A stretch of DNA of 64,000 bases from a virus (IMGVR_UViG_3300031994_000001:183799-247798); one strand, 5' to 3'; shown: positions 8,877 to 49,677, counted from the first letter of the stretch. Notes: generated by a model from the sequence alone, not told the origin. Numbers and translations are program-made.

Positions 8877-8944
8877 TGTTGATAACTCTGTTGATAACTT
8901 TTTTGAAAAAATGTGATGAGTGTATGAAATAATTTGTATTTTTG
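8877..8944 (+). promoter_or_regulatory. Host-type promoter with tandem TGTTGATAAC boxes, copy 2
   Basis: Boxes at 8877 and 8889; TATTTTTG at 8937-8944. Confidence 0.8.
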
Positions 8945-8967
8945 CGATGTCTTAAAAACGATAAGCA

Positions 8968-36823: not shown

Positions 36824-37585
36824 ATGAAGTACCAAGGCAACAAGAACAGATACCGAGCGGAAATTCTGCCGATAATCCTCAACGGGTGGAAAGGGTACAA
36901 CAGCGGTCGCTATTATGTAGAGCCGTTCTGCGGCAGTTGCAGCGTCCTGCAATACGTGAACGGCAAACGAATCGCCAACGACAAAAACAAGTACCTTATC
37001 GCTATGTGGAAATCCCTCGTTGCGAATAAGGATATGCCGAGAATCATAGACAAGGAGTTCTATGACGATGTGAGGGATTGCTTCTACGGCAGAAACGCCA
37101 AGTATTCGGACGATATTGTCGGTTGGGTAGGGTATATGGCTTCGTATAACGGTCGCTTCTTTGACGGAGGATACAGCGGTCACAATGTCGTTATAAAGGA
37201 CGGCAGCACCCGTGACTATATAACGGAAAACATAGAGAACACCATTGTCCAAATTCCGTACCTGCACGATGTTGATTTCAGAAGTTGCGACTACAACGAA
37301 CTTGAACTGCCGCCGAATTCGCTCGTATATGCAGACCCGCCGTACAAGAACACCAAGCAGTATATGTATTCAAAGGATTTCGACCACGAGGCGTTCTACG
37401 AATGGTGCAGGAAAACGGTCGCTGACGGACACACGCTGTTCATATCCGAATACAATATGCCAAGCGATTTCGAGTGTGTTTGGAGCAAGGATGTGACCTG
37501 CGCTATGAACCCGAACATAACAAAGAACAACACGGAGAAACTGTTTGTCCTTAAAGGCACAGTGAAACGAAAGACATTATTTTAA
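36824..37585 (+). CDS. dam: DNA adenine methyltransferase (Dam/D12 class)
   Basis: MKYQGNK, YVEPFCGS, YADPPY, FDHEAF.EW, FISEY. Confidence 0.88.
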   Translation: MKYQGNKNRYRAEILPIILNGWKGYNSGRYYVEPFCGSCSVLQYVNGKRIANDKNKYLIAMWKSLVANKDMPRIIDKEFYDDVRDCFYGRNAKYSDDIVGWVGYMASYNGRFFDGGYSGHNVVIKDGSTRDYITENIENTIVQIPYLHDVDFRSCDYNELELPPNSLVYADPPYKNTKQYMYSKDFDHEAFYEWCRKTVADGHTLFISEYNMPSDFECVWSKDVTCAMNPNITKNNTEKLFVLKGTVKRKTLF

Positions 37586-45910: not shown

Positions 45911-45978
45911 TGTTGATAACTCTGTTGATAACTTTTTCCGAAAAAAGTGATTGGTATATAAAAAATTTTGTATTTTTG
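45911..45978 (+). promoter_or_regulatory. Host-type promoter with tandem TGTTGATAAC boxes, copy 3 (left flank of island)
   Basis: Boxes at 45911 and 45923; TATTTTTG at 45971-45978; 65/68 identical to 49584-49651. Confidence 0.85.
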
Positions 45979-46010
45979 TGTCGTAATAAAAACATTCAAG
46001 TATAGCAAAG

Positions 46011-47477
46011 ATGACAACTGAAGAATTTATCACAAGAGCGAAACAAGTACACGGAGACAAGTACGACTATTCCTTGGTGAAGTATGTTAATGCTAATACA
46101 AAGATTAAGATTATTTGCAAAATACACGGTATCTTTGAACAAAGACCGCTTAACCATTTATATAATAGCCACGGCTGTCCAAAATGTGGTGGTAATAAGC
46201 GATTAACAAAAGACGAGTTTGAAATAAAGGCAAATGAAGTTCACGGTAACAAATATAATTATGAATATGTTGAATATATCAATGGTCAAACTAAAGTAAA
46301 AATTGAGTGTCCTACTCACGGTATATTTGAGCAAACACCAGGCAGTCATTTAGGAGGATGCGGGTGTCCAAAATGTCAGAAAGTAGAAGCCGCTAATAAG
46401 CAGCGATTAACAAAAGACGAGTTTGAAATAAAGGCAAATGAAGTTCACGGTAACAAATATAATTATGAATATGTTGAATATATCAATAGTCGAACTAAAG
46501 TAAAAATTGAGTGTCCTACTCACGGTATATTTGAACAAAAACCAAGTAGTCATTTAATGGGTCACGGCTGTCCGAAATGCGGTAATATAGTAAAAATGAC
46601 AGCAGACGAATTTTTAAAAAAAGGAATACAAATTCATAGTTCTGCTAATTATATATATGATTATGTTGATTATGTTGACTATCATACAAAAGTAAAAATT
46701 GAATGTCCTACGCACGGTATATTTGAAATAAGACCAAATAATTTTTTACGAGGACAAGGGTGTCATAAATGCGCATTGGAAAGAAATGCAAATAGACGCA
46801 AACTAACAAAAGAAGAATTTGAAACAAGGGCAAACGTAGTTCACGATAATAAATATGATTATTCAGAAACACAGTTAAACGGTGTTGATAAAAATGCTCG
46901 TATTCGTTGTCCATATCACGGATATTTTTGGCAACGTCCTTATAGTCATCTTTGCGGATGCGGGTGTCCAAAATGTAGTGGAACTGGAATTAGAAATTCA
47001 CATAAATTTAACCTCCTTGAAGAATTTGAGAGTGAGTATGCGTTCCGCACGTTCCTCGAAAACAATGACATTAACATTCTTCTTTTGATTATCACCAATA
47101 TAGAACCGAAATATAAGCCTCTGAAAAAGGACATAATGTTCGCGTTGAGACACGCTGACGAAATAAACCCCATACAATATTTGCGTGAAAAATACAGTTC
47201 GGAATCCAATGACAGTTTTGCTCAAAATACAAATAATACAGACATCACTTCAAGCGATTCAAATGATGATATTGTAAACGACATACTCTCACAAAAAATA
47301 AAGCCAAACATAAACGACAATTTATCAATAGGTGACATTATCAAGAATGACAGTGAAGAAATCCAAGTGATAAACAGATTGGACTGTGAACACCTTATTA
47401 CGCCAGAAATTCGTGAGTATATTATGAATAAGTTTATCAATGATATGCACCGTAACAAAATTTCAAGTAGCAAATAG
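46011..47477 (+). CDS. Five-repeat Zn-finger (DUF723-like, homing-endonuclease-associated) DNA-binding protein lacking an obvious nuclease domain
   Basis: Five H..KY.Y......KV.I.C..HG.F...P..H....GC.KC units; acidic Asn/Ser-rich C-terminus. Confidence 0.8.
   Translation: MTTEEFITRAKQVHGDKYDYSLVKYVNANTKIKIICKIHGIFEQRPLNHLYNSHGCPKCGGNKRLTKDEFEIKANEVHGNKYNYEYVEYINGQTKVKIECPTHGIFEQTPGSHLGGCGCPKCQKVEAANKQRLTKDEFEIKANEVHGNKYNYEYVEYINSRTKVKIECPTHGIFEQKPSSHLMGHGCPKCGNIVKMTADEFLKKGIQIHSSANYIYDYVDYVDYHTKVKIECPTHGIFEIRPNNFLRGQGCHKCALERNANRRKLTKEEFETRANVVHDNKYDYSETQLNGVDKNARIRCPYHGYFWQRPYSHLCGCGCPKCSGTGIRNSHKFNLLEEFESEYAFRTFLENNDINILLLIITNIEPKYKPLKKDIMFALRHADEINPIQYLREKYSSESNDSFAQNTNNTDITSSDSNDDIVNDILSQKIKPNINDNLSIGDIIKNDSEEIQVINRLDCEHLITPEIREYIMNKFINDMHRNKISSSK
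46198..46540 (+). repeat. Intragenic tandem duplication, 204-nt period
   Basis: 46198-46283 is identical to 46402-46487, and near-identity continues ~50 bp further. Confidence 0.85.
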
Positions 47478-47500
47478 TTACAACATTTAAAAACACTATT

Positions 47501-49579
47501 ATGACATTTGAAGAAGAATTGAAGTTGAGATTTGAAGAAGAATTGGATTCCATCAATGAAATGGAAAAACAAGGTTCAGAGGTATTCAATCATAAATTGA
47601 ACTATCAACAAAAACTTACTGTAACAAGACTTAAAAAACTTGATTTTTTTCTTAATTACAGTGACACGGGTGCAGGCAAAACAAAGGCTGCTATTTCATC
47701 GGCATTTTATCTTGGCGCAAAACATATACTTGTGTTCTGTCCCAAACAAGTGATGTCAACTTGGGAACAGCAAATCACCGAAGCAAAATTCGTTGATTCC
47801 GAAAACGTAGCAATAGGATATACAATTAAAAACTATAAAGATGGTTGCACCTTTGAAGTATTCAATTACGATAAATTCAACACCGAAGTTCGTGCAAGCA
47901 AACGAATTGAAAGATTACTCAATTCAAAGACTTATGATTTGATTGTATTTGACGAAATACACAGATTGAAAAACAAAAATTCGGAAACATACAAACAAAT
48001 TTTCAAATTGGTTAATATATTACGTAGAACCAATCCAAATGTTAAATTTCTTGGTGCTACTGCAACACCAATTACAACAAGTAACGCTGATTTGCAAGGT
48101 ATATATGAAATTTTGTCGGGCAAGCAGGCTGATGAACTAACAATGGGCAATCTTGCGTCCAAACTGTTAAATGCAAACAAGGTTCTTGAAACAAGTGGTT
48201 TTGGTTATTTTCCGAAAAGTGTTATAACTGTTAGATACAATGATATAGACGGAAACCACTTGTTTGAATCAGAACAAAATCGTGATGAGATTTTTAATAC
48301 AGAACTTGCTAAAATTGACGGAACGTCCATAGAAGAAGATTGCATTAAAAATAAAAGCAACATAAGCAAAATTGAAGAACTGCACCTTGAATTAAAATTT
48401 GAAGCATACAAGCACCTTATTAAAAAAGGAACTGTTATCTATACCGAATACACATACGGCGACACAATCCTTTTTAATTTGAAATACCTTGTTGAAAATG
48501 AATGCAATCTTACAACTTGTATTTACAGCGGTGAATACAAAGAAACCGATAGCGGTAACTCAATAGAAGAGTTCATAAAAGGCAACAAGGATGTCCTTAT
48601 AGCAACAAAATCTATGTGTGAAGGCGTGGACGGATTACAAAAAGTGTCAAACAGAGTGATACTTCACACAGTTCCTTCAGTATGGTCTGTTATGCACCAA
48701 CTGATAGGCAGGTTTGACAGACAAGGTTCAAACTTCGTTGCCGAAGGCGTTGACGTATATGTTCCTATGGTTGTATTCACACTCAACGACAGCACAACTG
48801 TATCGTTTGACGGCAGGCGGTGGAACAAGGCTATGATGAGAAAAATAAATGACGACATCGTAAAGGGCGGTCATCTTGAAGAAATATCTATTGCGGAAAA
48901 AAGAGATATGATTGATGATGTTGTTTCAAAACTTAAAGACAAATATGAAATGACAGAATTGCCCCGAAAAAATGTTGAGTTTGATATTGACAATAATGAA
49001 ATTGAGCGAAAAGAGCGTGTTAAGTCAATTATCAACGACTTTAATCAAAGAGGAAAAATTACTGATTCTGAAAAATTACACAAAGAATTGGAAAAATATC
49101 CAAGTTTATGGTTTGAATATCATAACGCGAGAGATGAGCGTATGAAAGAATGGAATGAAATACCATACGAACATATTGCTTCAAAAATTAAAAACAAAAA
49201 CAGCGTTGTTGCTGATTTTGGTTGTGGTATGAACCGTATGAAAGATTGTATTCCCAACAATAAAGTATATGCGTTTGACCACGTTGCAATAGACGATTCT
49301 GTAATCGCTTGTAATATGGCTCATACACCGCTTGACGATGAAAGTGTTGATGTTGCAGTTTTTTCTCTTTCATTATGGGGAAACTATGAGGACTATTTTA
49401 AAGAAGCATACAGAATCCTCAATTTTGGCGGATTGGTACATATTGCAGAACCGTCAAAATCTTATAATGAAGATAAAATAAATGAACTTATCGAAATGCT
49501 CAAAAGAAACGGTTTTGTGAAAGTTGGCGACATTGAAAACAGAGGTAAATTTTTCTATTTAACCTTTATGAAAATGTAG
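47501..49579 (+). CDS. SF2 (DExH) helicase fused to an Rrp8/nucleomethylin-like SAM methyltransferase
   Basis: DTGAGKT, FDEIH, GATAT, QLIGRFDRQG; C-terminal VVADFGCG, AFDH, ACNMAHTPLDDESVDVAVFSLSLWG. Confidence 0.82.
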   Translation: MTFEEELKLRFEEELDSINEMEKQGSEVFNHKLNYQQKLTVTRLKKLDFFLNYSDTGAGKTKAAISSAFYLGAKHILVFCPKQVMSTWEQQITEAKFVDSENVAIGYTIKNYKDGCTFEVFNYDKFNTEVRASKRIERLLNSKTYDLIVFDEIHRLKNKNSETYKQIFKLVNILRRTNPNVKFLGATATPITTSNADLQGIYEILSGKQADELTMGNLASKLLNANKVLETSGFGYFPKSVITVRYNDIDGNHLFESEQNRDEIFNTELAKIDGTSIEEDCIKNKSNISKIEELHLELKFEAYKHLIKKGTVIYTEYTYGDTILFNLKYLVENECNLTTCIYSGEYKETDSGNSIEEFIKGNKDVLIATKSMCEGVDGLQKVSNRVILHTVPSVWSVMHQLIGRFDRQGSNFVAEGVDVYVPMVVFTLNDSTTVSFDGRRWNKAMMRKINDDIVKGGHLEEISIAEKRDMIDDVVSKLKDKYEMTELPRKNVEFDIDNNEIERKERVKSIINDFNQRGKITDSEKLHKELEKYPSLWFEYHNARDERMKEWNEIPYEHIASKIKNKNSVVADFGCGMNRMKDCIPNNKVYAFDHVAIDDSVIACNMAHTPLDDESVDVAVFSLSLWGNYEDYFKEAYRILNFGGLVHIAEPSKSYNEDKINELIEMLKRNGFVKVGDIENRGKFFYLTFMKM

Positions 49580-49583
49580 TTCG

Positions 49584-49651
49584 TGTTAATAACTATGTTG
49601 ATAACTTTTTCCGAAAAAAGTGATTGGTGTATAAAAAATTTTGTATTTTTG
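49584..49651 (+). promoter_or_regulatory. Host-type promoter with tandem boxes, copy 4 (right flank of island)
   Basis: TGTTAATAAC at 49584, TGTTGATAAC at 49596, TATTTTTG at 49644-49651. Confidence 0.85.
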
Positions 49652-49677
49652 CAGCGTAATCAAAAACGATAAACGAT

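Follow-up and report, generated by a model that had tools for sequence, protein, structure and literature searches.

A zinc-module array and a Snf2-like ATPase joined to an Rrp8-family methyltransferase, encoded by adjacent genes of a viral genome

The viral record IMGVR_UViG_3300031994_000001 is 413,021 bp long and is complete according to CheckV. A 64,000-nucleotide stretch of this record (bases 183,799–247,798), referred to here as the window and used for the numbering of all genes and features below, carries an AT-rich island of two genes on the + strand. Gene 1 (46011–47477; open reading frame (ORF) of 488 aa, P0001) encodes an array of five zinc modules followed by a conserved tail, and gene 2 (47501–49579; ORF of 692 aa, P0002) encodes a putative Snf2-like ATPase that bears a C-terminal S-adenosylmethionine (SAM) methyltransferase domain of the Rrp8 family. 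The two genes are two halves of one three-module machine and are related to single-gene homologues by gene fusion or splitting. Our first, though tentative, choice is that this machine acts as an ATP-driven methyltransferase, which is recruited to specific sites of double-stranded DNA (dsDNA) and methylates DNA there. We infer the recruitment to dsDNA, as well as the nature of the methyl acceptor and the biological role.

The two genes are halves of one three-module protein

A search of 5.8 billion proteins returned about 75 relatives of 650–720 aa, with 55–74% identity and an ATPase-methyltransferase layout identical to that of P0002. A second tier from the same search (29–38% identity, 1000–1200 aa) has DUF723/DUF4379 modules fused ahead of the ATPase, a domain order that was confirmed. 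Residues 1–479 of P0001 align with the first 469 residues of the fusion P0088 (39% identity, E 4e-94), and P0002 aligns with the rest of it. On IMG/VR contigs, a single fused ORF of 1114–1443 aa is present at most loci and a split arrangement at few. The prokaryotic members are usually 1200–1400 aa long, including an N-terminal extension of 500–700 aa, and the ATPase and the methyltransferase share one ORF at 79 of the 80 bacterial and archaeal loci examined in species genomes.

The zinc-array gene lies directly 5' of the ATPase-methyltransferase gene in four phages with unrelated flanks, namely that of the window, L002 (285 kb), L168 (428 kb) and L169 (76 kb). Among 24 genes of L002, homologues in the genome of the window were found only for the two cassette genes and for one gene that maps elsewhere. 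The linkage of the pair is therefore conserved, both by adjacency in four unrelated phage contexts and by fusion in most relatives.

Modelling of the pair as a complex, a check which the initial annotation of the stretch had proposed, gave an ipSAE of 0.75 in three runs for the gene 1 tail with P0002, whereas the best of three controls scored 0.00. In calibration, the 0.75 mark was attained by 58 of 80 solved complexes and by 2 of 110 mismatched pairs. The runs share at least 25% of contacts, and the tail has a predicted local distance difference test score (pLDDT) of 41–51. In the modelled interface, residues 451–487 of P0001 face the N-terminal helix (residues 2–15 and 35–39) and a helical protrusion (226–238) of P0002, and this interface coincides with the point of polypeptide continuity in the fused relatives. 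The modelling supports, short of demonstration, a physical binding of P0001 and P0002. The initial annotation had put forward a sequence-specific binder that works with a helicase-methyltransferase effector; the fusions in most relatives, the conserved linkage and the controlled complex model, which is itself a prediction, all lend support to this pairing.

Further departures from the fused form were seen among the relatives. Proteins of 440–530 aa (P0077, P0078, P0080 and P0081–P0085) comprise the ATPase alone, or the C-lobe of the ATPase together with the methyltransferase, and are either further splits or products of contig-end cuts. On a 137-kb IMG/VR contig (L021:3177–8024), a copy of the module is fragmented, with seven ORFs of 109–367 aa, and this could be a decaying copy or a sign of a reassigned stop codon.

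Domains of the two proteins and of their relatives

The N-terminal array of gene 1 (46011–46976, + strand; aa 1–322) consists of five modules of the DUF723/DUF4379/CapR type. Each module has about 60 aa and an invariant C-x2-HG...C-x2-C pattern, and they are found at aa 1–59, 64–123, 132–191, 196–255 and 264–323. The DUF723 profile matched P0001 at E 2.4e-12, and DUF4379 and CapR of Pfam matched as well. The PHROGs 'endonuclease' families phrog_681 and phrog_559 match P0001 over their non-catalytic parts only, and no nuclease family, such as a homing endonuclease would carry, was found in P0001 with Pfam, PHROGs, NCBIfam and PADLOC. These results agree with the five zinc repeats of homing-endonuclease type, lacking a nuclease, that the initial annotation had described. 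Neither P0001 nor P0002 shows a nuclease domain in Pfam and PHROGs. The AlphaFold model of a single module has a pLDDT of 96.6. Modules 2 and 3 (46193–46375 and 46397–46579) are 91% identical in DNA, which indicates a recent tandem duplication within the array; a pair so similar should recognise a DNA sub-site that is itself repeated in tandem.

The C-terminal tail of gene 1 (46983–47477, + strand; aa 325–488, 164 aa) has two conserved blocks around an acidic linker. It is kept at 42–58% identity in 20 partner proteins carrying 1–8 zinc modules, and it is colinear with the linker of the fused relatives. On the basis of the complex model, we propose that the tail is an adaptor docking on P0002. 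According to published work, T5orf172 homing endonucleases and CapR, the repressor of the capsid operon, bind DNA through CapR, DUF723 and DUF4379 modules, which are repeated and recombine (bioRxiv 10.1101/2023.03.23.533998). Gene 1 shares with T5orf172/HNH homing endonucleases and with CapR, the repressor from a phage-inducible chromosomal island-like element (PLE), the repeated zinc modules, their variable number, intragenic duplication and occurrence in phages (bioRxiv 10.1101/2023.03.23.533998). Unlike the zinc-array homing endonucleases, P0001 has, in place of a nuclease, a conserved tail that is predicted to dock on an ATPase-methyltransferase and that is fused to it in relatives.

The ATPase of gene 2 (47501–48880, + strand; aa 1–460) belongs to superfamily 2 (SF2). 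The full set of SF2 motifs reported in the initial annotation was recovered, with Walker A GAGKT at residue 57, DEIH at 151, TAT at 187 and QLIGRFDRQG at 400, and the motor motifs are all invariant across 45 relatives. ResIII, DEAD, SNF2-rel_dom and Helicase_C all exceed their Pfam cut-offs; SNF2-rel_dom is borderline (28.9 bits against a cut-off of 24.9) and ResIII scores higher (44.5 bits). The AlphaFold model of P0002, built with an alignment of the 45 relatives, has a mean pLDDT of 84. Among the matches listed by Foldseek in the PDB, the ATPase resembled Ino80, ISWI/Snf2h, Chd1, DDM1, Mot1, CSB/Rad26, SMARCAD1, BAF and Sulfolobus Rad54 (SsoRad54), with E values of 1.5e-16 to 1e-13, target-normalised template modelling (TM) scores of up to 0.65 and 12–17% identity. 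The sole match listed outside the Snf2 family was human RRP8 (PDB 2zfu, rank 16), which aligned to the methyltransferase half of P0002, and RNA helicases were absent among the listed matches. The modelled ATPase thus has a Snf2-like fold of the dsDNA translocase type. It shares with Snf2-family dsDNA translocases (Ino80, ISWI, Chd1, Mot1, CSB and SsoRad54, together with RapA and DISARM DrmD) the two-lobe ATPase, all motifs and a passing SNF2-rel_dom score. Unlike these translocases, it has low sequence similarity to them, no fitting curated family model and a C-terminal Rrp8-like methyltransferase. A helical linker of low model confidence (48881–49063, + strand; aa 461–521, with pLDDT 50–64 for aa 461–510) leads from the ATPase to the methyltransferase.

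The methyltransferase domain (49064–49579, + strand; aa 522–692) is a class I SAM methyltransferase. Methyltransf_8 (PF05148) matches aa 522–691 with 114.9 bits against a cut-off of 27 (E 6.6e-33), and the generic Methyltransf_11 reaches 21.3 bits only; the domain does not group with small-molecule methyltransferases. Motif I, VADFGCG, begins at residue 570, and the methyltransferase strings quoted in the initial annotation were located at aa 569–627. Human RRP8 (2zfu) is the only solved sequence relative of P0002 (E 6e-26), and the modelled domain superposes on 2zfu_B with a TM score of 0.81, a root-mean-square deviation of 1.6 Å and 35% identity. The SAM-site residues D572, G574, G576, D593 and D617 are invariant in the 45 relatives; position 605 is N in P0002 and in 3 of the 45 relatives, and D in the other 42. 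The catalytic motifs of the ATPase and of the SAM site are intact by sequence, and the enzyme is read as probably active because these residues are invariant across the relatives. Virtually all residues invariant in the phage family are also present in human RRP8, and the closest named proteins beyond the family are eukaryotic Rrp8 proteins (40–48% identity). An Rrp8-type domain, rather than a small-molecule or classical DNA methyltransferase, had been suggested from motifs alone, and the profile match, the superposition on 2zfu and the lack of motif IV described below all bear this out.

In unrooted trees of the methyltransferase domain, one branch splits the named eukaryotic sequences and unnamed sequences of eukaryote-like length from the helicase-linked ones. 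This branch is fully supported both in FastTree (172 rows, Shimodaira–Hasegawa (SH)-like 100) and in IQ-TREE with LG+C20 (81 rows, SH-aLRT 100), and P0002 does not fall inside the eukaryotic Rrp8 clade. By these trees, the phage domain is a member of the Rrp8 family and not an orthologue of eukaryotic Rrp8, and since the eukaryotic side is separated by a fully supported branch, the phage domain was not recently captured from a eukaryote. The two sides share PF05148, a superposable fold, the SAM-binding motifs and a family-specific N-terminal YH...W...P element. Unlike eukaryotic Rrp8/nucleomethylin, the domain of P0002 forms the C-terminal part of a Snf2-like ATPase whose partner is a putative DNA-binding protein, and the domain lies in a separate clade. 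Short unnamed Rrp8-like metagenomic proteins (P0239, P0240, P0243 and P0244; 199–361 aa) were placed inside the eukaryotic clade beside green-algal Rrp8; some of them are encoded on contigs of 14–44 kb and may come from picoeukaryotes or giant viruses.

The family is large. A HMMER scan with the methyltransferase domain returned 2222 cluster representatives at E <= 1e-3 and 1228 at E <= 1e-10, and the family ATPase is encoded upstream in 98 of the best 150 matches. When one genome of each prokaryotic species was scanned with a profile, 214 encoded relatives were found. Members occur in Cyanobacteria, Bacteroidota, Chlamydiota, Verrucomicrobiota, Planctomycetota, Chloroflexota, Dependentiae and some archaea, as well as in many phages. 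Rrp8, which is treated as a eukaryotic rRNA enzyme, thus has its nearest relatives in a large unnamed family of phages, bacteria and archaea, and this prokaryotic family, in which an Rrp8-type domain is tied to a Snf2-like motor and mostly to modular zinc-finger arrays, is relevant to the origin of eukaryotic Rrp8. Close relatives were not found in deposited phages or in IMG/VR by DNA or single-protein patterns, and a profile search was required to find the IMG/VR members. No NCBIfam or PADLOC model covers the family. A literature search of incomplete coverage, so that an earlier description is possible, returned no description of PF05148/Methyltransf_8 in phages or of Rrp8 with Snf2 in bacteria. 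The individual domain families are established; for the architecture, and for the Rrp8-type domain of phages and bacteria, no curated model or solved structure was found.

The N-terminal part of the relatives is variable. Arrays of DUF4379/DUF723/CapR modules were identified in 20 of 69 and in 42 of 67 members in two censuses, and occasional members carry instead an Arm DNA-binding domain, sigma-70 region 4, an HNH-associated repeat or the N-terminal part of an integrase (P0121, from a bacterial mobile element). Judged by sequence, the N-terminal modules that are identifiable with confidence are all of dsDNA-binding types. A second type of N-terminal repeat scored as INT_rpt, with scores that are sums of partial matches; it is treated here as no more than a further kind of repeat, which may or may not bind DNA. 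This array, with a period of about 66 aa, is seen in L013:3724–8055, in L017:4066–7962 and in the cyanobacterial L113, L126 and L133. Matches to TAL-effector, DnaJ and DUF1818 in the N-terminal arrays of bacterial relatives were rejected as artefacts, which in the checked cases co-occur with very strong DUF4379 arrays and show no individually significant stretch.

No neighbour gene is conserved: across the 80 prokaryotic loci any one gene family recurs in no more than 5, and across the 18 viral loci in no more than 3. When 129 neighbours were assigned to Pfam families, each family was seen twice at most, and the genes were as diverse as housekeeping genes on the one hand and Type I R, Mrr, PIN and integrase genes on the other. 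In the 93-kb GCA_964440435.1 contig (L004:10001–13036), the N-terminal/core-binding part of an integrase replaces the zinc array, and the neighbours are mobile-element genes, namely a primase, AAA_25, a resolvase, a second integrase and a Gp49/helix-turn-helix (HTH) pair. The split cassette of the 76-kb phage contig L169 (5617–11752) lies between a serine recombinase (Resolvase with MerR HTH) and a TnpB-like gene (Cas12f1-like_TNB), flanks which suggest a route for movement of the cassette.

Proposed mechanism and alternative explanations

In the mechanism that we favour, the protein of gene 1 would read a long specific dsDNA sequence through its five-module array, and its C-terminal tail would plug into P0002 at the N-terminal helix and the helical protrusion. 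P0002 would be a Snf2-like ATP-driven dsDNA translocase bearing the Rrp8-family methyltransferase. At the recruited site, the motor would distort or track the duplex and the methyltransferase would modify the exposed target. This target would most likely be a DNA base and, by analogy with Rrp8, N1 of adenine, which would require a flipped or unpaired base. The cassette itself may be a self-contained unit that moves horizontally, imported from lower-GC phages and placed under a promoter of the resident phage, with a probable role in genetic conflict through the marking or disabling of specific foreign, competitor or host DNA.

The initial annotation had left the target as RNA or DNA. Recruitment can now be narrowed to dsDNA, because of the Snf2-like translocase fold and because the identifiable N-terminal modules are of a DNA-binding type. 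A DNA base is ranked first as acceptor, with the same reserve as the reading as a whole, since recruitment and motor action are each directed at DNA and the motor could supply an unpaired or flipped adenine. The flavour of the family is that of a conflict or selfish element rather than of a housekeeping enzyme, because the number of modules varies from 1 to 8, the distribution is solitary and free of context, the GC content is low here, and a recombinase and TnpB are its neighbours in L169.

Other enzymes likewise combine a DNA motor with a targeting part and a methyltransferase, namely fungal DNMT5 (a Snf2 ATPase with a C5 methyltransferase), DarB of phage P1 and Type ISP and Type I restriction-modification (R-M) enzymes. 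These enzymes carry classical C5 or N6-adenine domains, the latter with motif IV, and the Type I and ISP enzymes a nuclease, in contrast to P0002, which is of the Rrp8 type and is without motif IV or nuclease. If the target is DNA, the family would represent a new enzymatic DNA modification and a new type of effector in phage-host or phage-phage conflict, as well as a natural case of a targeting array joined to a base-modifying enzyme.

Several points weigh against methylation of DNA by this machine. 1-Methyladenine in DNA is a replication-blocking lesion, and for this reason a beneficial 'mark' is hard to picture. To our knowledge, no member of the Rrp8 family methylates DNA. Exocyclic-amine DNA methyltransferases carry the (D/N/S)PP(Y/F/W) motif IV, and this motif is absent from P0002 and from all 197 of the 197 family members. 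The only established activity of the Rrp8 family is the formation of 1-methyladenine (m1A) on 25S/28S rRNA (PMC3553958). The cassette of the window phage also stands in an RNA-oriented neighbourhood (RNA ligase, CCA-adding enzyme), yet this neighbourhood is not conserved at other loci. As to the recruiting part, the zinc modules of P0001 would bind DNA by inference from their relatives. No solved structure resembling the module was found by sequence, with Foldseek (best E 0.8) or with VIA-align wide (best Z 3.7), a result which is no evidence for a new fold; given that no structural relative is at hand, the DNA-binding role rests on the literature (bioRxiv 10.1101/2023.03.23.533998). Finally, the fold of the tail itself is uncertain in the complex model, where its pLDDT fell below 50 in one run.

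A more specific form of the proposal is, in our view, rather improbable. The family might be a sequence-programmable 'lesion writer' of DNA, in which a motor-assisted Rrp8-type methyltransferase stands in place of the nuclease of a homing endonuclease. If this were true, 1-methyladenine or another methyl on the Watson-Crick face would be written at one long site in the DNA of a rival phage, a satellite or the host, and the lesion would lead to a replication block, or to recombinational repair that copies the cassette. Eukaryotic Rrp8/nucleomethylin is associated with ribosomal DNA (rDNA) chromatin, and as a corollary it would be sister to, or descended from, this prokaryotic DNA-associated family.

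The strongest competitor of DNA methylation is a DNA-tethered RNA methyltransferase, which we regard as possible but on balance unlikely. In this case, the array and the motor would reach particular genes, and adenine N1 of nascent or nearby RNA (rRNA, tRNA or phage transcripts) would be methylated, altering translation during infection. The domain is a true member of the Rrp8 family, with residues in common with human RRP8, and the only activity established for that family is on rRNA (PMC3553958); in the window phage, the cassette also sits amid genes of RNA repair and tRNA maturation. On the other hand, such a neighbourhood is not kept in other phages or bacteria, the motor is like dsDNA translocases and unlike DEAD/DEAH RNA helicases, and a fast-changing number of modules suits a conflict system more than the modification of a conserved RNA. 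Bacterial rRNA, furthermore, is normally without m1A (PMC3553958). If RNA is the target after all, the machine would be the first RNA methyltransferase tethered to DNA to be known from prokaryotic viruses.

A lesser chance is given to a site-specific remodeller or regulator, in which the complex would act at promoters or origins to evict or reposition RNA polymerase or nucleoid proteins, and the methyltransferase would modify a protein or act as a SAM-binding regulatory domain. The Snf2 enzymes Mot1, CSB (in Pol II-bound repair complexes) and RapA work on DNA-bound proteins, and CapR, made of the same zinc modules as gene 1, is a transcriptional repressor (bioRxiv 10.1101/2023.03.23.533998). 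This is opposed by the strict conservation of the SAM site and of family-specific residues in the 45 relatives, which points to catalysis on a substrate like that of Rrp8, and no enzyme of the Rrp8 family is known as a protein methyltransferase.

An unusual R-M or defence operon, as had been considered in the initial annotation, would need a methyltransferase that shields self DNA and a linked nuclease that cuts unmodified DNA, and it appears very improbable. There is a superficial resemblance to helicase-methyltransferase defence proteins, as the best PADLOC/NCBIfam matches of the ATPase are DISARM DrmD, PbeA and BrxH, but all are far under the cut-offs (DrmD 40 bits against 610). Neither protein has a nuclease domain, the motif IV of DNA methyltransferases is absent, and no conserved third gene was found at the 18 viral and 80 prokaryotic loci. 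Hardly credible at all is the chance juxtaposition of a decayed homing endonuclease and a helicase-methyltransferase: gene 1, which has no paralogue elsewhere in the 413-kb genome and is its sole zinc-array gene, does match merely the DNA-binding parts of phage endonuclease families, but the conserved adjacency, conserved tail and complex model speak against chance, and the fused relatives already refute it.

Genomic setting and promoter-like repeat

The genes of the window are small, densely packed and for the most part on the + strand. The two-gene island has a GC content of 0.339, compared with a genome mean of 0.430 (standard deviation 0.024; 3.6-kb windows of the 413,021-bp genome). It is the lowest-GC 3.6-kb stretch of the genome, as only 0.15% of such windows are equally low and every one of them overlaps the island, so that the AT-rich island noticed in the initial annotation proved to be the genome minimum. 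In other phages, the GC content of the cassette (0.37–0.39) is similar to that of its flanks (0.37–0.40). An empty site in a sister phage was not found, as the sole near-identical contig has the identical arrangement and another contig ends at the island edge. Rfam and tRNA searches gave no RNA gene in the island, and a scan for sigma-70 promoters and terminators gave nothing beyond what shuffled sequences give.

A promoter-like element of about 80 nt, with a TGTTGATAACT doublet, an A/T tract and TAnnTTTG, lies upstream of the cassette (45911–45992, + strand), and its next copy (49584–49665, + strand; 91% identical) starts the downstream transcription unit. The element forms an 82-nt direct repeat around the island, and this repeat was considered as the ends of a mobile element. 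That possibility is ruled out by the presence of 22 copies genome-wide and by the absence of the element at the cassette loci of other phages, and because of this absence the element is assigned to the resident phage and not to an island end. The 22 copies (17 on the + strand and 5 on the - strand) each precede a transcription unit, and those of the window are at 1230–1312, 8877–8959, 45911–45992 and 49584–49665. The cassette is driven by a promoter of the resident phage, and the following unit begins with another copy of it. The 22 copies likely form a regulon with a dedicated DNA-binding factor. We liken the TAnnTTTG box to the -7 promoter element of Bacteroidota, and this -7-like box, by our presumption, hints at a Bacteroidota host.

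The genes around the cassette in the window encode an RNA ligase, a radical-SAM protein, a nucleoside deoxyribosyltransferase and a CCA-adding enzyme. Farther upstream, at 36824–37585, lies a gene of 253 aa whose counterpart on the near-identical contig L087 is annotated as a Dam-type DNA adenine methyltransferase (PF02086); by this annotation, the phage additionally encodes a classical DNA methyltransferase.

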